DNA from: Isurus oxyrinchus
Lineage: Eukaryota
NCBI GenBank assembly: GCA_026770705.1
Contig: JANJGN010000024.1
Coordinates: 6,262,001-6,326,000 of the forward strand
Reading direction: 5' to 3'
Length of the DNA stretch: 64,000 bases
Made by a program: the position numbers and the translations under genes. Under the pieces are notes generated by a model. That model did no database searches, was not told the DNA's origin, and saw only the letters and a program-made list of their open reading frames with translations. Shown here one piece after another: positions 3,071 through 50,671 of this stretch; within the stretch, counting starts at the first letter, position 1, and each line of letters begins with the position of its first letter.

Positions 3071-3738
3071 TAAATGACAAAATGAAAATTTTGGCCGGGA
3101 AGTCTAAATTCTCAGGCTCTAATTCTAAAGTAGCCTGTTCATTTCTAATTCAGCATCAAGGTGAATCCAGTCCACATGGATTCTACATTTTAATATGCTT
3201 GCTTGGACAGCCTTTTGAATTCCACTCTTGCAAGCTACACCACTGCATGCAATGCAAATCCGCTAATGGTTACATTGAAGACGTAAAGCTTCTGCCCAAA
3301 TTCCGGAATAATGAACAGATCTAGCCAAAAGCAAAAAATATGAAAGACAAGATTCAGACTGGTACATGGCAAAAATCAAAATCAAAATGTGGGGCAGGGT
3401 TTTGGAATGAACCTGCTGAACTCATTGTCCAGAAGGTTGCAAAGTGCCTAATCGGAAGGTGGGGTAGTTCCTCGAGTTTGGCTTCACTGGAACACTGCAG
3501 CACTGCGGAAACACAATGTGAGCATGTTTGGGGAACAATTCCACTCAGTCCGCAAGCATGGCCATGAGCTTCTGGTCGCTTGACAGTTTAAATCACCACC
3601 TTGCTCTCGAGGACACATTTCTGGAGGGTTTAAATATCTAACAGCATCAGTACGAAACTCAATGAAGTTAAAGATAAGGTGCTGTCAACTCCGTGGCGAT
3701 AAAGCGAAAGTGGCTACAAAAGATCTTCACCCCCTCAT

Positions 3739-4428
3739 TGGGCAGAATTTTGCCCTTGATGGGCGGGCGGGCCCGACTGACTCGGTGGTGGGTGGGCAGC
3801 CAGTCGCCGCCGCCGAAACGGGCCCCACCGCCATTTTAAGTGGACGGGCCAATGAAGGCCCACCCAGCATGTTATCTGACAGGAAGTGCTATGCGCTTCC
3901 TGTGCGGGTGTGTGTGTGGGGTGTGGGGTGGGGTGGGGGGGTGGGGTTTCCCCAACTGCCAGAGTGCGGACATCTCCCTGAGGCAAAGTGCTGTCTATTA
4001 AAAAACTCTGTGAAACTCTAAAAATAGAAAAATTAAAAAATCATAAGCCTGCCCCCCTCGTGTGCAAATGTCACACGTGATGGGACATGTTAATGAAGAA
4101 CACAAACACTTCATTAAAAGATTTTAAATCCGATATCAAACCTCATCCCGCCACTGGGTGAGGTTTGTAAAAAATCCGCTTACCCGTCTGCTCGTTGGGC
4201 CCATGCGCTGACCCGAAGTTCACACGGGCCCCTCAAAATCCTGGTCGATTGGAGAGTTAAGGGCCTTAACAGGGCCTTTAATTAGTGGCGGGCGCGCGTC
4301 CCACTGCATAGCGCGCCCGCCGACTGAAATATCGCGGCGCCGCCCGCTGATGTCAGGACGCTCGCACGGCATTTTAAGTGCTGGCGTGAGGACTGAACCA
4401 CCCATATTCCAGCCAGAAGATTGTGCCC
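3739..4428. mobile_element. Harbinger-type MITE (family A-related, opposite orientation to the 2382 copy)
   Basis: TIRs GGGCAGAATTTT...AAGATTGTGCCC. CTCCCTGAGGCA and AAACCTCATCCCGCC motifs are shared with family A. Confidence 0.8.
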
Positions 4429-8713: not shown

Positions 8714-9199
8714 CATCCAACTTTCCAAGGTTATTTTATTATCTTAAATTCAGAGGCACAGATAAACGGAGTGAAAAAGGCAACATGTAAAGGGAAATGG
8801 CAGACGGGGGTGTTTCTGAGAAAACACCCAACATTACAGTGGGTAAAGCATTCAAAACCTTTAAAGATACCATTAGTCCGAGTATATTCATTCAGGAATA
8901 GCAGCCTCCGACTGAACTAATCTTCAGAGGAATGATGCTTCTCTTTGCAGATATCGGTGAGGGTAGAATATCACTCAGGTGTCCTGACCTGCATTGCATT
9001 CGTCAGTTGGTCCTTATCTTCTTCCAAATGTATTAGATATGGAAGTCTCACTGGGAAACCCATTGATAGAAATAATAGAGAAAGTGACACAAATTGGTGA
9101 GATCCTAAGTGCCAGCAGGAAAAGAGATTGAAGAAAATTATCAAGAAATGGTGAAATATACTTCTACTTATATATACATTTTTGCATGGCATGATGCTG

Positions 9200-9820
9200 G
9201 AATTGTGAGCTGATCATGTAGCAGCGATGGAAACAGGGCAACTGGAACCTGAGTGAACAGGGCAAGCAACAATCAGTTCAGTTTTCACTCTATGCAAGTG
9301 GATGGGCTTTGAACAGGTTAAAATATTGCTCCCTGTCTCCCCTTAAACAAATCAGATTGAAAGATTATGGATTAAGTAGCAGAGGGACTGCGAAGGGAGA
9401 TCATATCGGAGTGGGTGAATTCAATGCCAACTTAGCTACAGAAAGAGAAATAAAGAGAGAGAAAATAAATGGGATGAAAAGGGAGAAAGGAAAAAGAAAC
9501 AGAAAGGAAAAGATTAAAAAAACATTTAAAATGTGACATTTTTAAAATCTCCAACAACAATTAAAACCTGAGGGATGCTTGTAATAGTTAATTTTCAGTG
9601 CCAGAGAGCTTAATTTTAAGTAATTAATATTTACCATATCGTTAAAAGTATAATTAGCCTTGAAATGAGGAGACTTAATTTTCTGTGGTGAATTTAATTT
9701 GTATCTTCCACACAAATACAACAACTTCACACCATTCAATGCATTTCAAAGTAAGGTAGGCAGCCTTTTTGTAAGCTAAGGATGGAGCTTCGCAATTCGA
9801 ACAGCAACTCCTGGATTTCT
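9200..9820. repeat. Old unclassified interspersed repeat, related copy at about 40065-40745
   Basis: Shared blocks GGGTGAATT..CAGAAAGAGAAATAA, AAATCTC, and CAGCAA..GATTT. Confidence 0.45.
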
Positions 9821-10550
9821 GGGCTGATGTTTATGGCCCCGCAATGGACGTGTTTTCAAGGGGTCATTAGCCCATCACCTTCTTGGCCATCCTGAGTTGT
9901 CCCCAAAATACATTGGGGGAGGGTGTGGTTGGGCAGCGGCTGAAATCAGCAGCCCATCTGCCTTACAAGCCAATTGATCCCAGTAATATGTTGCCCACGC
10001 ATAACACGGTGGTGTGGGCAAACAGGCTGGAATGGGCTGCCCGTTCTTTCAAAAAAGGTTTCAAAAGGATGGGAAGGAAGGGGGAACATTGGGGGCACCC
10101 CTTCCCCACCTGAAAATTGTACCCCCCTTTCTTACTCTGTATGTGCACTGCAAAAGCCACACCACACCACCACCCACCCCCATCCCCTCCCTGAGATGCT
10201 CAATTCCTCCCTGCCCAATATCACTGACTTAGCTCGGTCTCGGACCCATTGGAGCCATCTTCCTGGGCTTGCTTGCCATCCCGGCACAGCACCCGAGTGC
10301 GGAGCGTCTTGCCAGTGAGCTATGGAAGTCCTACAGTCCTCTTGTTGCTGCCGTCCAAAGCGTGTTATTGATGCAGGGCGAATTCTTTTTTTTAATCGTC
10401 GGCCGGTTTCCAACTGACTTTATCATGGCGGGGGTGGGGTTGCTGACCAGTATCCCCCACCACCCCCTGCCCACCCCACCATCCTGGTCAGATTTGAGAA
10501 CAGCAGCAGAAGTGGACTTGACAACAAACTGCCCCTTGACCCTGAAATCT
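9821..10550. mobile_element. GC-rich non-autonomous DNA transposon, Harbinger-like
   Basis: Starts GGGCTGATGTTTATGG. GC-rich island of similar organisation to 16100-16883. The right TIR is degenerate. Confidence 0.4.
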
Positions 10551-17247: not shown

Positions 17248-17760
17248 GGGCTGAATTTTTCAGTCGGCGAGCAGCGGGCGGGGCCCACTCGCCAAGGGGA
17301 AAATGACACGGGGTGATGTTGGGGGGAACCTCACACATCATCCTGCCCCATTTAAACCTTCAGGAAGGAGGAGGGAAGGTGCGATCAGCTGTCTGCCCAC
17401 CAACCTGTCAATGGCCATTTGAGGCCATTGGCAGGATAATTATAACAATTAAAGGCCCTGCCCGTCCAAACTTAAGGCTGGCGGGCAGGCCAGGGGCCCC
17501 AGCGGGCTTCTGAAAAAACTTGAAATCTCAGCCACCGGCGGGATGAGGTTTCATGTCTGTTTTAAAAAAGTTTAAGAAAGTTTTTGTGCCATTTGTTAAC
17601 ATGTCCCATCTCATGTGACATTGTCACATGAGGGGGACATGTTAATGATTTTTTTTATTTTTCCATTTTTAGAGCTTTAAAAACTTTCAGCAATCTCCCT
17701 GAGGCAGCACTTAGCCTCAGGGAGATATGTGCTCTTTCGTGCCCATGTGTGAAGGAGCCA
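17248..17760. mobile_element. Harbinger-type MITE (family A), right end lost
   Basis: Starts GGGCTGAATTTTT, is colinear with 2382-2890, and abuts the truncated LTR. Confidence 0.8.
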
Positions 17761-17761
17761 A

Positions 17762-18591
17762 TTGGTCTCACTGCACTCTGTCTTTCACATGAGGCTTTCC
17801 AATCTCCACTTTCCAAGAACTTGTCTTGGAACCGGCTCCAAAATTATGCTTTCTCTCAGACACATTCCGGCAGGGGTTGACCTCCAGGATTTCAAACTCT
17901 CCTTGTGATGTTCCTCTTCCCTGGGTCGCCACATGCATTCAAGCTGTCTTCCACACACACTCTCTCACCGACTCAGCCATTTACATTACCACTGCTTCAC
18001 ATGCCCATAGCAAAGAGTTACAGACCTTCAGTTGCCTGTTTGGATCTTCTTGACTTTTGCAAGCTGTTCTCACTTTAAATCTGCTTTCTGCAGCTTTTGT
18101 CTCTTTAAATCTGAAGCTTGGAGTCTTGCTCTCTGCCCCTCACTCTTAACTTCACCTAACAGGACCTTTTCCCAAGTTCCATGTCCTTCCTTTTGAATAG
18201 AAGGTCTGCTTTGGACTTTCCCCTCTTCTACTCCTGCTGGGTGTTTGGGGTTTTTCCTTAGCTTAGGCCTGGCTATCTCTTCCTCTTGAACCAATCTCTC
18301 TCGGGCAGCTACTTTCAACCAGCTTTAGCTTGGAGCTGGCTATCTGCCCCTTCTAAGCTGCTCCTCTGGCCGCTATCTTCAAAATCAGCTGAACTCCAAC
18401 AGCTTCCAAAAAAAACTGCTGTTTCTCTTCTTCTGTGTGTGTGTCTGTAGGAGGGACCTGCCTCTCTGTCCCCTTATTGCTAGGCAGCAGTCCAATTCTT
18501 TTACTCCTGTTTGTTTAAGTTCCTAAGTCATAAAGTCTCATTAGAAATGCAAGCACCTTTTCAAAGTGAAACTAAAATTTCATTTGACCTT
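17762..18591 (-). repeat. 3' LTR (truncated at both ends)
   Basis: Aligns by eye to 22462-23213, e.g. GCTGTTCTCACTTTAAATCTGCTTTCTGCAGCTTT and TAGAAATGCAAGCACCTTTT. Confidence 0.85.
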
Positions 18592-19589
18592 GGAGGAAAG
18601 AAAGCTTCATAACAGTGAAGGTTTTTTTGCAATTGCCCTATATCCACCTTACACAAACTTAACATTATAAACCTTTACCAATTACAACTTATTACATACT
18701 ATACAAATAAATTTTCCATTCCGTTTCACAACTACACATCATATCGTACAATTGCAAAAACATATTTAAGTAAAGTCAATGAATGTACCAAAATTAGCAG
18801 AATTTGCACATCATAGTATTATCATAACTCAACTCTTATGTTTCTTTTTCCTTTTACTCCCAGTCTTTAACTCAGCAAAGAATGGTTCATTTAATTCCAC
18901 AGCTGAATTGTCATTTTCATTCACTAGAGGCGTAATTCCCTCCTCAAGCTCATTTTCCAAACTTAAGTGTGGTAAATTCTCATTTTGATTTACAAAGTCA
19001 AATGATATTTTTGTGCATTAACATCTCATTTCTTCTCTGATCAAAATCTCTTTTTGCCACTTGAAGAATGTTATAGAGATGTTTTCTTATGTTCACACAA
19101 AAGTATTTCATACTCCTGCTTGGTTTGATCTTTAAACTTTTTATGGTATTGTTATTTTTTCAGATCCCATTTCAAACAATGTTTTTCCACTTCATTTTGA
19201 GCAATGTCAATTATATTCTCCCTGTGGAGGTTTGTTCCAATCCTTCAATTATTTTACACAATCCACAGACTATATCATTCGACTCCTTTCCAGGTTTTAG
19301 ATTGTCTTTTGCAACCTGCTCACTTACCTGGTTTCCAATAGCTGTATTTTGTATATTAGCACCAGCAATCACTTGTAAATCAGAGTACCTGGCCATTGAC
19401 TTTTCCAGGCCATTTTGCAGTTTCAGTCATTTTTGTTGGCAACTCTTGATTTCAAGTTCTACATGCATTTTAGTTGTTTTCATATTGTCCATTACTGAGG
19501 TTTATATATCAGTTATTTTACTTGGATCAGTTCTTTGCACAATTGGACTACAATTCAGCAAAGAATTTTTATTCACAGGAACCACTTTG

Positions 19590-20040
19590 GAACTTTGGCA
19601 CTCAATACCACACACCTTCTCTTCCTTTTTGTCCAATTTGCTTTGGAGTTAAAGGATCTCATTGCTCTTTTCACAAAGAAGCTCTAACAGTTTGCTGGTT
19701 TTGCTTTTTATTTCTGCATGCAGCCAAGTATTCTGATTTACCAACAATTCCTTTTCCTGTTCAAGACATTTTCCATGATATTTCATAGCAACATCTGATG
19801 CTTGAAGTTCATCAAGTTTTAACTGAAGTTTGACTTTTGTTAAGTTTGCATCTACAAGCTTATCATTTAGACATTTCCCCAAGTCCCCAGTCAAGTGTTC
19901 TACTTTCTATGACTGATTCTCCATTGATCTTATCAATTTTCTTCTTTCGTTAGCAAACTCTTCTTTCATACTTGGAAGTTGATTTTCTACGTTAATCAGG
20001 TTTTCCTTCAATTGCTTGTTATCTGCAATAAATGTTTCAA
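19590..20040 (-). pseudogene. TPR: Intronless fragment of nucleoprotein TPR N-terminal coiled coil, captured in the LTR element
   Basis: Translation [116 protein letters not shown] matches vertebrate TPR as I recall it ([117 protein letters not shown]). Confidence 0.9.
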
Positions 20041-20059
20041 TTTTGGCCACAGTGGATTC

Positions 20060-20420
20060 TGAAGTTGGTTAAGATCAGCATAATCAACCACCCGCTGCAA
20101 TACAGTCATTGCCATATCACTGTCTCCACTAACCAAATCATTACCCAGAATAAAATCCACCCCGTCAATTGGTGATTTAGGAATAATTCCCACCATAACA
20201 ATTCCATTTAAAAAGTGAATTTGTAAGTTAACTTTACACAAAGAAACAGGTTCATCAATTCCATTAATACTTCTTATCAATACTTTTTCTTTCATAAAAC
20301 TACATGGAACATAAATTGTATCATCAGCCACCATCAATGATTGATATGCCCCTGAATCTCCCAAAATTTTGATCTGTTAGCTATTTTCTTGGAGGAGTAA
20401 GATAATTCTTCTCTCTTCGA
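20060..20420 (-). pseudogene. Retrotransposon aspartic protease
   Basis: ILGDSGAYQSLM active site and C-terminal VGIIPKSPIDGVDFILGNDL (ORF 20008-20364). Confidence 0.85.
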
Positions 20421-21859
20421 CACAAAAGATCCAGAGCCTTTGTTAGCCTGACTTCCTTCACCAGTAATCAAAGAAGAATACTTTAGACTATCCTGAACCA
20501 TATTCCCCTTTCCTGTATGTTCTGAGGGAGCACGTTTCACCTGTGCTACTGCTACAGTTTTAACAGCCATTTCCTTTTCTGATGCAACCTTTCCTGAGGA
20601 TTCCTTCAGTGCTCCTACTACTGCAATAGATCTATCATTTAATCTCCAGCAATCTGCCCTAACATGTCCCATCTTGTTACAATGAAAACACTTAGGTTTT
20701 CAAATCTCACTTCCACCCTCAGTACCTTCCTACCTGGCCTGGGAGAAATTTCCTGAGAATTCCCAACTGTCCTTTCTCTTCTCTGACTGCTTGTCTTCCT
20801 TTCACCTTCCCATCTTCTAACCTCCTCTGGTTTATGGGGATGACAGAAGAAGGGTTTAGATTTATGGACCAGTTCATAACCGTCAACCATCTCTGCTGCC
20901 TGTTTAACCATTTTGACCCTCTGGTCTTCAACATGGGCTCTAACTATAAGAGGAAAGAATCTTTAAATTCTTCCACGAGAATTATTTCCCTAAGAGCTTC
21001 ATATACCTTTATTGTCCTTATCTAACAGTCAAAACCACTTTGCTTTACCCTTTCAAACTCAATATAGGTCTGCCCAGGCTGTTTCCTTATATTTTGAAAT
21101 TTCTTCCTGCATGCCTGAGGGACTGACTCATGTACACTTAGAATAGTCTTTTTTACTGCATCATAATCCACTGATACCTCTTCTGAAAGTGAAGTGTAAA
21201 CCTTATGATCTCTACCTACCAACCTAGACTGTAAATGTAATGTCCAGATTTATTTTTACCACTTCATTTATCTAGCCACCTTTTCAAATGAGATAAAGAA
21301 TGCTTCTACATCCCTTCCCTCAAACTTTGGAAGAGATTGCACAAACTTTAACATCTCCCTACTAGGCTTTAGCTTGATGGGTTTTTCATCAACTTTCCTC
21401 AATATCTGAGATCTCTTTTTTAAGGTTCAGCTTTTTAAGCTGGTTTTCCCATTCTCTTTTCTTGTCTCTTTCCTCCATTGCTAACATCTCCCTCTGAAGG
21501 TTGAGATTTTGCATTTCCATTTCTCTTTGAAATATTCTCTCCTTTCCCTTACTTTTTCTTTTGCCTCTAATTCAAGTTTTTTCAGTTTCTTTGCTTGTTC
21601 ACATTCGAGCTTCTTCACCCGTATCTGAAGTCTCACTACCTCCAGCTGTGACTCACTCCCTGGAGAAAATTATCTCTCTAAAATCCCTTCCAGCTTTAAA
21701 TGCTGTGCTATTATCTCAACTGTGTCTGCTTTCCTCACCCCTTAGGCTAATCTAACTCCAGCTTATCTGCCAATTCAGCTAAGTCTTGGTTACTTTCTGT
21801 AAACCATTCAGGGTTACATTTTCCATCTGTAAAATAGCCTTAGAAACCTCCAAAGCCAT
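20420..21859 (-). pseudogene. Gag (capsid with SCAN-like CTD and CCHC zinc knuckle), disrupted
   Basis: ATG at 21859 (MALEVSK). Contains LPKFEGRDVEAFFISFEKVA, DYDAVKKTIL..VPQACRKKFQNIRKQPGQTY, EALREIILVEEFK, and CFHCNKMGHVRADC at about 20649-20690. Confidence 0.85.
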
Positions 21860-22017
21860 TTTGAATTCTAACTGGTATAATATATCTCACAGCAACTCCA
21901 ATTCTTATGTCCAGTACCTCTTTACCACTACATACTTGTTTTAGAAAGATTCACAGATCCTACCAATCCTAGCCCAATTATTATTCCGCATCCAATCACC
22001 TGCTGTCCGTGTTTCAA

Positions 22018-22035
22018 ATCCCGCAAGAGCCCCCA
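22018..22035 (-). promoter_or_regulatory. Primer-binding site complementary to tRNA-Pro
   Basis: Minus strand TGGGGGCTCTTGCGGGAT versus canonical TGGGGGCTCGTCCGGGAT (2 mismatches), 3 nt after the LTR-terminal ..GTAACA. Confidence 0.85.
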
Positions 22036-22038
22036 CTT

Positions 22039-23325
22039 TGTTACTATCCCCAGTTGGCTACCCCTAGACAAGCCTGATCCAAGAGTGGAACCCAGCTTGA
22101 TAGATCCTAACTTTTATTTGTTTGTTTAGATATGTGGAGAGTAGCTACTGAAAGAGTCACAGGAGTCAGCTGATTAATTTTTAACAAATGAATAAAACAT
22201 TTATTCAACAAGATGAACTATATTACAATACTCTTTTACCCACACCTATACCTTTACAGGTATATACAGGCTTGCAAATACAACACAAGTTACAAAAGTT
22301 ATCTGAATCTCTGATGTCCACAGTAAGTGCACTGTCCTTGTACCAATAGGTGCCCTGTAGTCAAACACATCACACTCTGAAACCAAGTGATGGATGCCAC
22401 CTCAACCAAATGCTATGGATCTCTCCTCAACTCCCCCAGGTGCTTGTCACACCATGAGACAACCAGTCTCACTGAACTCTGTCTTTCACATGAGGGTTTC
22501 CAATCTCCACTCTCCGAGAACTCGCCACGGCATTTTCTCCCAAGCTGGCAGTTTCTCTCTGATGCCTTCCACAAGGGTTCACCTCCAGGGTTTCGAACTC
22601 TCGTTCGATGTTCCTCTTCCTTGGGTCACCACATGAGTTCAAGCTGTCTGTCACGTACTCCCTGTCACTGGTGCAGCCGTCAACAGAAACACGACTACGT
22701 TACATGTCCATTGCAAAGAGCTACAGACGTTCAGTTGTCTCTTTGGACCTTCTTGCCTTTTGCAAGCTGTTCTCACTTTAAATCTGCTTTCTGCAGCTTT
22801 TGCCTCTTTAAATCTGAAGCTTGGAGCCTTTCTCCCTGCTCCTTACCATTAACTTTATTTAACAGGACCTTTTCCAGGTTCCTGTCCTTCCTTTGACTAG
22901 AAAGTCTACTTTGGATGTTCCCCTCTTCCATTCACCTCAGTTCCCTTAGCTTGGGACTGGCTCTCTGCCTCTTCTAAGCTGTTCCTCCGGACAATATCCT
23001 CAAAATCAGCTGTCCTCTGACAGATTCCAAAACAAACTGCTGTTTCTCTTCTTCCATGTGTGTGTCTGTGGGAGCGACCTGTCTCTCTGGCCCCCTGTTG
23101 CTAGGCAACAGTCCAATTCTCCCACTCCTGTTTATTTAACTTCTTAAGTCGTAAACTCTCAATAGAAATGCAAGCACCTTTTTTAAAGTGAAACTAAAAC
23201 TTAATTTGACCTTTCTTAACACACAGATACAAAAATACAAATCAAACATAAACTTTAAAGCTACAACTCATCCCTAACACCCACAAATGCAAATATAGCT
23301 TACTTAAACTAACTCTATCTCCTAA
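22039..23325 (-). repeat. 5' LTR (about 1.29 kb)
   Basis: Ends ..GATAGTAACA before the PBS, begins (G)GTTAGG, and is partly repeated at 17762-18591. Confidence 0.8.
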
Positions 23326-25629
23326 CCCCCCAAAATATGGCTTCCCATCTCAAAGGGAAAAGTGGATATGGTAGGAGGGAACCCTGTGCCTAGGAGTTTC
23401 TTCATCACTAGCCTGCTTTCCATTAGGGGTTGATACATTGACAGAAAGAAGACACATTGGCTTTGCCATCAGTTGGTCCCCAAGATGTTCTAGGATAAGG
23501 CTTCTGACAAGCTGGTGCCTCTTTGTGGGTGATTCCATCTCTGTCACAGGCATCAATGTCCCCCAAAAGGCTTTCTTTATGCTGGTGGCCCTGGCAGGCA
23601 CAGGTTACAAGTATAAAAAGGGGGTGTTTGTTATTTTAGGCTGTTCCAATTTAGCTGTGTGCTGTCTAATACAAGAGCCCAAATTGCCTTTTTAAACAGT
23701 TTGAATTCAACAGAGCTAAAACCACCAGGCAAAGACTCAGTATTGTTGATTATAAGCAAGTGTTGGAAACTTATCAACTAACTAACAGAGACAGAATATA
23801 GGTATTGTATACTTATAGGTGAAACTCTACCAACTCCATGCTTTCAAATGGGTGATCAATCCAATAGAAGTGGGCAACAACTTGAGCTCCTCACGCAGAC
23901 AGAGGAACAGTCACTGTGTCCGAGAAGCACTATACCTTCCTGGGATTTCAACTGGCATGGAATGTGTCACTGAACCAGTCCCAGTACTAAGTGCTCATCT
24001 GCCCTGAAGTTTATTGGGAATGACCTTTGCGCTGATTGGATACTCAACTATACCCAGAGATCTAAACCGGTTCCTTCACACTTGATGCATGCAAAGATGG
24101 TTCCCACAACCCCTTTTTTATGCTCAAAAGATGTTGTAAGCCCATCTTAGCTAAGTTGTTGGAAGTGACTAATTGGGCTATAATTTGTCAATAATGTGAT
24201 GGGTTAACTCCATTGGTTCTAGCTAATTACACACATTGTTTTCAACTTAAGACAATGCCTTTCTTTAAGCTATGTTTCATATCTCAATGCCTTTACAGGA
24301 GTCCTATTCATTAAGACAGACTCAACAATCAAGGATAGTGGGTAGAATTCTCCCATTCCATCCATGGGTTTCTGCGGGTGGGTGGAGCGGAGAATCCAGA
24401 GGCAGGCGAAAAGTCGCAAATCCGCCATTGTAAAAATAGGTTTTAATTCTCCCAATGGCTGTTTATGGTGAGTCAGTTATCTCGACAAGTGGCGCGAATG
24501 TAATTTGCATTCATTAACATGTCATGAACGCATATTAAAGCAGCTGCTCACGGGAATCTTGCCAAGCCTTCCAATCTTGCATCAGGCCAGCGGGAATTGA
24601 CATCGGTCTCAAACCCATTTGAAAAGGGGTGACATACACAAGTCGGACGTCAGTTCGCTGGTAACTTAGAGGCGAGTGGAACATACACTATACAGTTACC
24701 ATAGCACTGCGCCAGTCTTGTGGTGATGAACGCCACTCTGCTAAGGCTGCAGGGTTGGTCTGCTCCTGCTCTTTGCCTACATTGTCCCGAGGATAACCAC
24801 TGTGGCATTCATGTAGGCCCCCACTTTCAGAAACTAGCATTTCAACTGGGGGTGGACTGTGAGGCGAGGGTGGGGTTGATGAACATGTAAGGAGCAACAG
24901 GGAGGGAAGGCTGTGGAATGGCAGAGAGGGGAAAGGGCGAATGCAAGGGGGTAAATGGGGAGGGAAGGCTATGGAATGGCAGTGAGAAGGAAGGGCAAAC
25001 ATGAGGGGAGGTCCTTTCTGGGGTCACCCTCTAACCTCTTGTTGCCACAGTAATGAGCAGGAATCTGCTTAGAAAGAAAGGATGAAGAGCACCTTGGGGT
25101 GAAAGCCACTGAAAGCCAATAGCTTCACTAACACTGTTAAAGGGCCACTCAGAGCTCAATGGCTACATCACAATCACTGCATCTCAAGAGTAAAACATAG
25201 AGATGTAGAATTTAGGAATGCAGGCAATAGTAAGGGAGGAACAGTGCCTCCTTTACTGTTGTGTCATATTTGGCATTACATCAATGAAGGCCTGTGATGT
25301 GTTCACCAGAATTGACACTCCTAATGGGCCAAAGGGCATGAGCAACTGATTGGTCATTAATATCCCACATCAGAGATTGGAGCACAGAACTAGGTTGGAT
25401 CTCTCATCTCACTGATACTTTAATATCCTACACAGGACTCAAGATGTTACATATCTGCGATGCCATCTTGGTCACCTCGATGTGTGTGCCAGTGTCTCAT
25501 CAGCCACCATGCAAGTAGGGTAGGAAAAGTTACAGTCTCCAAACGTGTCATCCTCCGAGCTTCACTTTCTTGCTCCTTGAATCATTAATGTTTTCAATGT
25601 TTCCTTTCAGAGAGAAGACAAAAGCAGAT

Positions 25630-49462: not shown

Positions 49463-50671
49463 CATGGGTCCTGGTGACCTAGCTGTCTGGCCCACAGAGA
49501 ACATAGAAGACTGAGGAGATGGCAACTGGGACTCCTGGCTGTGTAAAGGCAGGAGCAGCAACCTCAGGAAGAAAGGGCAGAAGGGGTTCCCACACACACA
49601 CTGCCCAGGAGTGACAGTGAGCCCTGGCTGGTCAGCGCCTAGCAACAGCCAGGCTCTAGAGAAACTGCCTGCCATTCCTGCAGATGACTGAGAACCGGTG
49701 TCGCCGATGACCGTACATGTCTGGGTGGCTCACATCTGTCACTCACTGCAGGACTTGGCGCCAAGGGGACATGGAGGGCATCCACTGCCATAGGCTGTCA
49801 AAGTGACCGTGATGCTTAATTTCTATGCCAGTGGCTCCTTTCAAGGCTCCACAGGTGACCTCTGTGCGATTTCACAATCCACCATGCACAAATGCATTCA
49901 TGAGGTCACGGACGCCATCTTCTCTATGGCACACAACTTTGTGCATTTCGCCCAGGACCGATACAGCCAGGATGCCAGGGCCATTGGATCCACCCTGATC
50001 TTGGGATTCCCACAGGTGCAGAGTGCGATTGACTGCACTCATGTGGTGCTCAGGTCTCCATCGCTACACTCCGTGGACTTCATCAACCGCAAAGGCTTCC
50101 ACTCACTGAACGTGCAGCTGGCGTGCGACCACCAGAAACACATCCTGCAGGTGTGTGCACGGTTTCCAGGGAGTGTGCACGACGCTTCCTTCCTGAGTCT
50201 CTCACCGATCTCTTCAGTCTTTCAAGGCCCACAGAGGTTGCAGGGTTGGCTCCTTGGGGACAAGGGCTACCCACAGAGGCCATGGCTGATGACACCAATG
50301 CGGTGGCCTCAGACTGCAGCTCGCAACTTGATGGAGCACCCCATCAGGATGTTGTAGATGTGGCTCCAGTGCCTGGACCTGTCTGTTGGAGTCCTGCAAT
50401 TCTGTCCGCAGAGGGTGTCTCGCATCGTTGTCATCTGCTGTGCCCATTGTTACAACCTGGCACTGCAACAAGGTGACGAGCTGACTGAGGAGCAGATGGA
50501 GGAGCTGAATGTCTCCTCCAATTAGGAGGACGTCAACGGGGATGAGGGTGAGGGGGTCCTCAGTGGTGACGATGACGGGGATGAGGCTCTCACACTGGCT
50601 AAATGAGGCAGGCATGTTCGGGGGGCCCTTATAGCTCCCAGATTTGTGGAGGATGATGACAACATGCAGTG
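49463..50671 (+). pseudogene. Harbinger DDE transposase
   Basis: ORF 49803-50357 has LNFYASGSFQ, AIDCTHV, NRKGFHSLNVQLACDH, FPGSVHDA and WLLGDKGYP, followed by an acidic tail. Confidence 0.92.

Follow-up and report, generated by a model that had tools for sequence, protein, structure and literature searches.

The element in the window

The window, a 64-kb stretch of Isurus oxyrinchus DNA, holds a single decayed member of a non-autonomous LTR retrotransposon family that is Gmr1-like (Ty3/gypsy) and present in high copy number. All parts of the element map to the minus strand. An earlier note had recognized LTRs, a primer site, a gag with a CCHC knuckle, a protease, and a piece of TPR at this locus, and each of these parts was confirmed. 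The 5' LTR (22039-23327) is ~1.29 kb long, with family ends of TGTTA...TAACA. Directly downstream lies the primer-binding site (22018-22035), which reads TGGGGGCTC... in the sequence and which we take to be of the tRNA-Pro type. The 3' LTR (17755-18591) is truncated at both ends. Only 18591-17755 of the 1.29-kb LTR is matched; ~110 nt are gone at its start, including the purine tract that is present in other family copies, and ~400 nt are gone at its end. The LTR pair aligns at 81% over 469 nt and at 86% over 268 nt. TG...CA LTR ends are clear in 12 of 15 two-LTR family copies. When 12 copies were tested for target-site duplications, the 5-bp flanks matched at 40%, versus 26% for shuffled flanks (p 0.01); the 4-bp and 6-bp flanks gave p values of 0.07 and 0.25.

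The gag (20600-21859) is broken in the window copy and comprises an N-terminal coiled region, a SCAN-type capsid, and a CCHC knuckle (20690-20649) that matches PF00098. Among four gag stretches from other family copies, three have the SCAN capsid PF02023, two of them above the curated cut-off. The aspartic protease (20134-20376) ends at a GNDL motif. Its D-S-G, read correctly by the earlier note, belongs to the window copy and not to the family, where DTG occurs in 13 of 22 copies and DSG in 1 of 22.

The window gag matches the autonomous Gmr1-like element P0094, and the window protease is 47% identical to the P0094 protease. Because an autonomous Gmr1-like polyprotein used as a query aligns to gag and protease alone, RT, RNase H, and integrase are absent from the whole window, in agreement with the earlier note. 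The nearest full polyproteins to the family Gag-protease have SCAN, integrase, RT, and RNase H domains, and the family Gag and protease cluster with eight autonomous-type loci of the same genome with a support of 1.00 (FastTree). Judged by these sequence relationships, the Gag-protease descends from Gmr1-like elements. In a Gmr1-like element, the protease is followed by integrase and then by RT-RNase H; both are missing here, and the family is filed as a non-autonomous Gmr1-like derivative, not as a full member. In 20 autonomous-type loci drawn from 6,972 protease candidates, the family LTR has no DNA-level match, and the primer-site 9-mer of the family is also found in 4. A C/A-V-V-T-R-like motif, presumably the cleavage region in autonomous relatives, follows the protease in 12 of 30 autonomous-type loci and in none of 22 TPR copies or 9 CEP152-only loci.

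The captured TPR and CEP152 pieces

TPR homology spans 20133-19610 and consists of ~165 codons in two pieces plus ~18 nt of 5'UTR. The earlier note was right about the identity of this coiled coil and underestimated its length at 130-150 codons. The piece matches PF25481 (E 2.4e-13), and whale shark TPR is 71% identical across an 85-aa open stretch. The insert is spliced host mRNA composed of the 5'UTR (20116-20133, aligned to host exon 1), which forms the in-frame protease-TPR linker; codons 1-32 from host exon 1 (20021-20115); and codons 104-235 (19610-20008), a coiled coil in which host exons 3-7 are contiguous, in sense orientation, and free of introns. The spacing of the linker is fixed at 33 nt in 38 of 39 copies, and the host start Met is lost in 46 of 50. 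The internal TPR deletion is in frame; 43 of 50 copies share a spacing of 30 nt, and by our own heptad assignment the deletion preserves the a/d register. A non-shark source of TPR was ruled out: at 18 positions with a different residue in birds the copies resemble shark, and at 4 positions they resemble bird or chimaera. Between the end of the protease and the TPR 5'UTR there is a short likeness, seen by eye only and too old to be scored as switch-point microsimilarity.

Host TPR has a basket-binding domain at aa 450-606 and ZC3HC1-binding sites at aa 29-88 and 386-481. None of these docking sites is found in the element, whose piece covers aa 1-32 and 104-235; the aa 29-88 site was removed by the internal deletion. 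In two-hybrid tests, TPR 110-377 did not bind ZC3HC1. Prediction of a two-copy complex of the TPR-derived stretch scored 0.49, versus 0.57 for the control, and is given no weight in either direction.

The window copy carries damage of its own. The frameshift near 20060 that the earlier note placed between the protease and TPR frames exists, but it sits inside the TPR exon-1 piece and not at the protease junction. Nor is it typical of the family: 30 of 38 copies agree on one modal length for the spacing around this site, from which the window copy deviates. The two stops in the TPR piece, which the earlier note read as decay, are likewise not general in the family; at these columns the host residue is kept in 42 of 50 and 35 of 50 copies. 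The second LTR that was thought to follow TPR is present, but the frame first continues through an in-frame linker of ~100 codons (19310-19609), which is also present in catshark fragments, and through a strongly diverged CEP152-derived coiled coil (18993-19309) corresponding to ~aa 900-1010 of ray CEP152. The last segment (18829-18992) has an acidic stretch, a K/R-rich and possibly NLS-like end, and the stop at 18831-18829 that closes the family frame and is present in 18 of 20 copies. The basic C-terminal tail has at least 5 K/R within 8 residues in 18 of 22 copies. Across copies, the frame thus reads Gag(SCAN, CCHC)-protease-TPR-linker-CEP152-basic tail, ~1,000 codons without RT, RNase H, or integrase. 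The proposal of a Gag-PR-TPR polyprotein family holds insofar as the family is multi-copy, in frame, and non-autonomous; it was incomplete in overlooking the CEP152 piece and the basic tail.

The protease-TPR junction recurs, as the earlier note had anticipated for a family, in all 39 of the other copies that were scored, which lie on many chromosomes (1,349 candidates), and in 16 of 20 loci selected through the tail alone. Many dispersed copies with a common defective structure are what defines a non-autonomous family. One Gag-PR-TPR frame is open family-wide, also as anticipated, and the other two frames contain dozens of majority-stop columns. In one copy, a natural stop-free stretch of 345 codons covers the protease and TPR. 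The white shark has an orthologous insertion of the family, and the family also occurs in the catshark. One family copy has been incorporated into a white shark gene model. Contigs of four sequencing runs (presumed RNA), aligned at 80% likeness, cover the element piecewise and are mostly <90% alike; two of these pieces bridge the protease-TPR junction and are no evidence on expression, since intronic read-through would look alike. A search of sequencing runs with the host TPR stretch listed no RNA run.

CEP152 in the element tail was detected by profile search alone. Within the tail, Pfam gave nothing above cut-off except the TPR overlap, a word-indexed protein search and Atlas gave no match, and a PDB sequence search with the 345-aa stretch gave 0 matches. 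The Pfam sites on ray CEP152 are at 1-51 and 1207-1257, the latter being the CEP63-binding coil. Both this coil and the PLK4-binding N-terminus of CEP152 are absent from the part retained by the family. Sister elements carry spliced CEP152 mRNA directly 3' of a protease spacer; a few copies have a long CEP152 piece and most have a trimmed one, and the older sister families have CEP152 without TPR. In one early copy, L130, 11 CEP152 exons are contiguous and the CEP63-binding coil (ray aa 1207-1257) is kept; the centrosome-targeting region was lost in later lineages. From host to copy, CEP152 has a dN of 0.67 with dS saturated. Simple nesting of the TPR family within the CEP152-only families was rejected, being true of the tail alone (support 63-86). 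Because the Gag-protease groups with the autonomous clade, the element is a mosaic for which we infer the order of events.

Selection on the inserts

TPR appears, from its substitutions, to have been under protein-level constraint within the element. From host to family, TPR has a dN of 0.123 (0.085-0.168) and a dS of 0.94 (0.57-1.75). Once a host-branch dS of 0.20-0.34 is removed by indirect calibration, omega is 0.16-0.20, below one as the earlier note had expected, versus 0.57 between decayed copies. The capsid, on a path of similar dS (0.86), has a dN of 0.083, to which that of TPR is close. The copy-copy dN/dS is 0.57-0.58 in all four regions and 0.59-0.87 in shifted frames, and it serves as a neutral-like yardstick only, with which selection and mutation bias are inseparable. 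A within-family test of shared versus rare variants reached significance for gag; TPR (p 0.45 on transitions) and the tail (p 0.09) did not. Residues that are invariant in shark and bird TPR are kept more often by the element (74/91 versus 24/42, p 0.005), and this is also true at non-core positions (44/53 versus 16/27, p 0.03). The core a/d positions are no better retained than others (25/32 versus 60/80, p 0.81). Such a pattern is closer to what a conserved surface resembling TPR would give than to what a generic rod would give, with differences in residue mutability as a potential confounder.

Explanations for the retained coils and their significance

The explanation that we tentatively prefer, at somewhat less than even confidence, is that spliced TPR and CEP152 replaced the Pol enzymes and that their predicted coiled coils stayed on the protease as a self-pairing rod doing the oligomerizing job of Pol. 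A protease-attached oligomerization rod is favored over mimicry or passive cargo because the basket-docking sites, the centrosome-targeting coil, and the presumed cleavage motif are all missing. Events would have begun with the sister elements, which first carried spliced CEP152 mRNA behind the protease spacer. Within a shared particle, reverse transcription may then have switched templates and so joined the Gag-protease of an autonomous lineage, the 5' end of TPR mRNA, and the 3' portion of an element with CEP152 into what reads as the single family frame from Gag to the basic tail. Protein-level selection, as dN/dS suggests, would have maintained the TPR part while both pieces shed their organelle-targeting modules. 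The rod would drive polyprotein dimerization, thereby activating the protease and helping assembly or co-assembly with a helper Gag-Pol that would supply RT and integrase in trans. The family did amplify and, as its copies show, later decayed neutrally. In favor of a rod, there are two unrelated captures, and both are long coiled coils behind the protease. A leucine zipper on the C-terminus of HIV-1 protease is described in PMC3291649 as raising Gag-PR multimerization and cleavage; the same report describes forced dimerization as cutting particle yield, which counts against a rod. A rod also leaves unaccounted the need for a second coil with CEP152 already there, and the conserved basic tail.

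That tail, with its basic motif in 18 of 22 copies, has a place in targeting or interference by mimicry, which we consider unlikely. The TPR piece would pair with host TPR or a partner, the basic tail would import the protein, and CEP152 would tether particles at the centrosome, aiding nuclear entry, RNA export, or germline inheritance. Constraint that tracks host-invariant TPR positions, the non-core ones included, is consistent with this, as are the location of TPR and CEP152 at sites relevant to nuclear entry and the CEP63-binding coil in the earliest CEP152 capture (L130). Pore TPR retains unspliced Gag/Pol-CTE RNA, as reported in PMC3258255; therefore, a dominant-negative TPR fragment could help an unspliced genome. 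It is similarly doubtful that a shark lineage, after pirating first the centrosome scaffold CEP152 and then the nuclear-basket scaffold TPR, employed the fused coils and a C-terminal nuclear signal for routing or docking particles or for blunting TPR retention of unspliced RNA. Mimicry has against it the missing basket-binding domain and both ZC3HC1 sites, with TPR 110-377 negative for ZC3HC1, the later lineages without the CEP152 centrosome-targeting region, and the lack of a cleavage-type motif that would release the pieces. A released pore-docking mimic, as the earlier note had suggested, is weakened by the same absences (cleavage-type motif in 0 of 22 copies); interference through pairing of the element TPR with host TPR could still apply.

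Near-passive cargo has an equally low probability. The inserts would be kept just for an open frame, for example to avoid nonsense-mediated decay or keep genome length, and a soluble helix, with no specific role. The within-family test on TPR and tail, the far drift of the CEP152 part, and the dependence of the dS split between host and element branches on indirect calibration all agree with this, and PMC5131818 describes most LTR-mediated captures, young ones included, as lying on the sense strand and in frame. However, TPR has a dN of ~0.12 over a dS of ~0.9, similar to capsid, its changes avoid host-invariant residues, and neither reading frame nor heptad register is broken by its deletion. 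If the benefit lay at the RNA level, as with small-RNA camouflage, synonymous sites would be conserved; here they are the most diverged. A lone TPR retrocopy that landed in an element already dead at the window locus, for which nothing speaks but the decayed state of the window copy, is refuted by the recurrent junction and the white shark orthologous insertion, and we give it practically no credence.

Gag-onc transducing retroviruses are replication-defective and helper-dependent, and host coding sequence stands where pol would be. TPR-MET-type fusions use the TPR N-terminal coil as a fusion partner. Unlike these, the shark family has no env or signaling domain and underwent germline amplification; unlike in TPR-MET, its TPR coil lies on the C-terminal side of the enzyme and is missing aa 33-103. 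Capture of onc genes by retroviruses is noted in PMC6431247. Gmr1-like Ty3/gypsy elements, as outlined in bioRxiv 10.1101/2025.03.03.638093, have a SCAN capsid and a PR-IN-RT-RH order. The shark family shares the SCAN capsid, the CCHC, an RDTG-type protease ending in GNDL, and the single frame, but has two host mRNA pieces in frame in place of integrase, RT, and RNase H. Maize Bs1 is likewise an LTR element with several host-gene pieces in one chimeric frame and switch points common to all copies; as presented in PMC13317346 and PMC5131818, its copy number is 1-5 and it is interpreted as a new host gene. In contrast, the shark chimera amplified widely, and its two cargoes, both structural coiled coils, follow in fusion a protease that was retained. 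Since each shark copy decayed once inserted, whatever selection there was worked in favor of the element. In animals, LTR-mediated retroposition, with HERV-K/FAM8A1 among the cases, also yields intronless sense mRNA pieces between LTRs and multi-gene chimeras, with template switching proposed (Tan et al. 2016, PMC5131818). The cases covered there are mostly young, low-copy retrocopies, whereas the shark lineage is old, spans at least two shark orders, and shows serial capture, trimming, and long constraint. No description of the Gag-protease-TPR-CEP152 arrangement was found in the literature. The family is a variant of LTR gene transduction.

Reported LTR captures of host genes are mostly young passengers or low-copy chimeras serving the host. 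In the shark family, by contrast, it appears that captured host protein was on two occasions held under constraint by a vertebrate element to the benefit of that element's spread, and dated intermediates (long CEP152, trimmed CEP152, and TPR plus CEP152) persist in the genome. Copies of the family can pass as TPR or CEP152 paralogues, which is a risk for annotation. Particle routing or docking by the pirated coils, if true, would be molecular mimicry of the host nuclear-entry machinery by a helper-dependent element. The family lets one ask what Pol adds to particle assembly besides catalysis, and if non-autonomous elements acquire accessory genes as retroviruses do.

A Gag-protease-TPR-CEP152 element and its family

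The minus strand of the window carries an LTR element. The 5' LTR (~23327-22039) is followed by the primer site TGGGGGCTC, by gag, whose CCHC knuckle matches PF00098, and by a protease that shares 47% identity with its counterpart in an autonomous Gmr1-like polyprotein. Only part of the 3' LTR survives (18591-17755), and the LTR pair aligns at 81% and 86% identity. At 17301-17758, the end of the 3' LTR is displaced by a different repeat that recurs in many unrelated loci examined. The autonomous polyprotein matches gag and protease and nothing else in the window; therefore, the element lacks integrase, RT, and RNase H. Long open stretches elsewhere in the window, at 53-1787 and 49794-50354 (plus strand) and at 45013-43262 and 53035-52514 (minus strand), presumably resemble remnants of LINE reverse transcriptases and a transposase of Harbinger type, accompanied by a Myb-like partner. 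In three of four stretches from other family copies, gag includes a SCAN domain, described as a hallmark of Gmr1-like elements (bioRxiv 10.1101/2025.03.03.638093).

A 701-nt protease-TPR query returned 1,349 candidates from the genome. The earlier note had proposed this junction as a family trait, and it is present in all 39 other copies scored among the candidates, each of which aligns over 640 nt or more at 83-86% identity. The 10-kb stretches around the copies (L083 and L100 were left out as duplicates) hold an LTR, a 3.45-kb internal part, and an LTR, with no space for pol. The protease GNDL motif lies 33 nt from TPR codon 1 in 38/39 copies. The frameshift noted near 20060 belongs to the window copy, which deviates in spacing; it is not the family state, as 30/38 copies share a single modal length. 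Stops were counted per alignment column in the 30 and 22 copies (of 39) that span the respective regions. A single phase stays open from the capsid through protease and TPR and beyond, apart from one column with stops in 9/30 copies and one in 8/20, and it closes at a common stop at 18831 in 18/20. The two other phases have dozens of columns with majority stops. This count covers capsid onward, with the 5' gag (21859-21150), variable in length, outside it, so a frame of about 1,000 codons is approximate. In one copy, a natural open stretch of 345 codons extends across protease and TPR.

Capture of TPR and CEP152

An 85-aa open stretch of the TPR piece matches PF25481 (E 2.4e-13). All 92 protein matches reported from 285 candidates are named TPR (top, whale shark, 71%), which bears out the earlier identification. 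The host TPR gene lies at G000:C16, where exons 1-8 were defined. From it, the element has ~18 nt of 5'UTR with codons 1-32, then codons 104-235, and crosses the exon 3-7 junctions without an intron. The piece derives from spliced host mRNA. The column of the host start Met has Met in just 4/50 copies, so the TPR piece would be producible solely as part of a polyprotein. Spacing across the internal deletion is 30 nt in 43/50 copies, and by our own heptad assignment the a/d register appears preserved at this join (chance 1/7 given the frame).

The tail, 3' of the TPR piece, evidently holds a second host capture, from CEP152. Twelve natural tail stretches were built into a profile, which gave 13 matches among 1.84 billion proteins. 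The 11 that were read are three catshark fragments of the TPR-family element itself, four proteins with CEP152 Pfam domains, a fifth clustering with named CEP152, and three resembling these by eye. A profile made solely from host CEP152 genes scores tails in 22/22 copies at 20-53 bits (window, 33), with reversed, shuffled, and TPR controls at 6 bits or less. In plain tblastn, CEP152 had no match in the window at E 1e-3, so detecting the piece there takes the profile or the read-through (E 1e-11). Among 20 loci picked by tail alone, 16 have TPR, three are 5'-truncated, and one is without protease and TPR. At G000:C21:113.4-114.3 Mb, at least eight near-identical tail matches each lie beside an inverted partial neighbour; this is a segmental duplication array holding a truncated copy.

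With ray CEP152 as the genome query, the host exon came first, then 149 further places. Of 19 loci taken from the top of this list, 13 have a Gmr1 protease immediately upstream and none has TPR. In the long early copy L130, 11 host CEP152 exons are contiguous at 81-97% DNA identity, and by eye this copy finishes with the final residues of RNase H; most other CEP152-bearing loci are cut down to ~aa 870-1020. In these sister Gmr1-like families (L120-L138; e.g., L130:5640-7700, L125, L121), spliced CEP152 mRNA, either long or trimmed, follows the protease, and TPR is missing; searching the genome gave 1,195 candidates. Locus L136 has two CEP152-bearing pieces (9137-10000 and 3237-4069) within one 10-kb stretch, and in one of them aa 390-425 of CEP152 are fused to the sequence from aa 797 on.

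History and constraint

In the tree of the CEP152 segment common to these elements, the TPR family has support 100 and a stem of 0.95 substitutions per site; it lies amid CEP152-only copies, with weak nesting support (63-86). In the Gag-protease tree, it groups with eight autonomous-type loci (1.00), apart from CEP152-only copies, and its own clade has local support of 0.17. Because the two parts group with different relatives, the element is, on these trees, evidently a mosaic. Template switching, cited as a route for LTR-mediated capture (PMC5131818), may have produced it. Identity between paired LTRs is 75-85% in 12 copies (two non-LTR rows excluded), and the family is old and, among copies seen, dead. 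A white shark SLC4 bicarbonate-transporter model (P0093) includes ~100 aa from the element, made up of a gag piece out of frame and the protease-TPR junction, as either annotation artefact or exonisation. The same insertion is in the same SLC4 intron here (L110:5500-6367; G000:C8, ~50.50 Mb; 98% over 51 aa). A catshark fragment reads across the boundary between TPR and the tail (51% over 79 aa).

For TPR codons 104-236, dN is 0.196 and dS 1.08 between host and copies, and 0.147 and 0.261 between copies. With terminal decay removed, host-to-family dN is 0.123 (0.085-0.168) and dS 0.94 (0.57-1.75); leaving out CpG codons, the values are 0.096 and 0.85. The host-branch share of dS is assumed, 0.20 or 0.34 being subtracted by calibration on three early CEP152 copies (total dS to their host gene, 0.33-0.35); omega is then 0.16 or 0.20, and 0.1% or 2.5% of bootstrap replicates, respectively, rise to the neutral-like value of 0.57. 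This calibration presumes that TPR was captured later than CEP152, an order left unproven by the mosaic history. For further reference, TPR family versus autonomous sister gives dN 0.083 and dS 0.86 for capsid, and 0.37 and 1.08 for protease. The protease (window 20134-20376 and copies) is much faster than capsid at the protein level, with the catalytic Asp kept in 21/22. Shared versus rare variants within the family indicate purifying selection in gag (p 0.002, transitions); the same test detected none in the tail (p 0.09) or in TPR (p 0.45), which counts against constraint on TPR. TPR substitutions in the element spare residues that do not vary between shark and bird TPR (p 0.005), and the same holds outside the coil core (p 0.03); core positions are not better kept than the rest (p 0.81).

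Possible roles of the captured coils

A VVTR-like motif, presumably a cleavage region, follows the protease in 12/30 autonomous-type loci, 0/22 TPR copies, and 0/9 CEP152-only loci. TPR is reported to have ZC3HC1 sites at aa 29-88 and 386-481 and a basket-binding domain at aa 450-606, with no ZC3HC1 binding for aa 110-377 (bioRxiv 10.64898/2026.10.08.757499); another study places the region that inserts it into the pore at aa 390-660 (bioRxiv 10.64898/2026.02.20.707084). The element's codons 1-32 and 104-235 are without these sites, domain, and region. The coiled-coil domains of CEP152 are reported to self-interact, and a separate conserved region to target the centrosome (PMC2983069). The CEP63-binding coil is in L130 and not in the TPR family. 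A zipper at the end of HIV-1 protease is reported to increase Gag-PR multimerisation and cleavage (PMC3291649). Because docking sites and a cleavage-type motif are missing and this precedent exists, the reading tentatively favoured is that the TPR and CEP152 coils form an oligomerisation rod attached to the protease. Mimicry, in which the captured pieces imitate host proteins, is less likely given the missing docking sites; in its favour are the host-like pattern of constraint, a basic tail in 18/22 copies, and the reported retention of unspliced RNA by TPR (PMC3258255). About as likely as mimicry is that the inserts are near-passive cargo with no specific role.

The TPR family would depend on a helper. 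Integrase follows the protease in 27/30 Gmr1-like loci examined, but the family's LTR has a match in 0/20 autonomous-type loci examined. Five of 20 Gmr1-like loci examined (L180, L186, L188, L192, L195) have an integrase and RNase H end with no RT match, possibly another non-autonomous type.

The nearest known systems are maize Bs1 (PMC13317346) and animal LTR retrocopies (PMC5131818; PMC6431247; PMC5408684). In literature searches covering chiefly openly available papers and judged from titles and abstract openings, no description of the Gag-protease-TPR-CEP152 arrangement was found. The arrangement itself is judged new, and its kind, host-gene capture by an LTR element, is already known. The CEP152-bearing sister families without TPR merit separate description.
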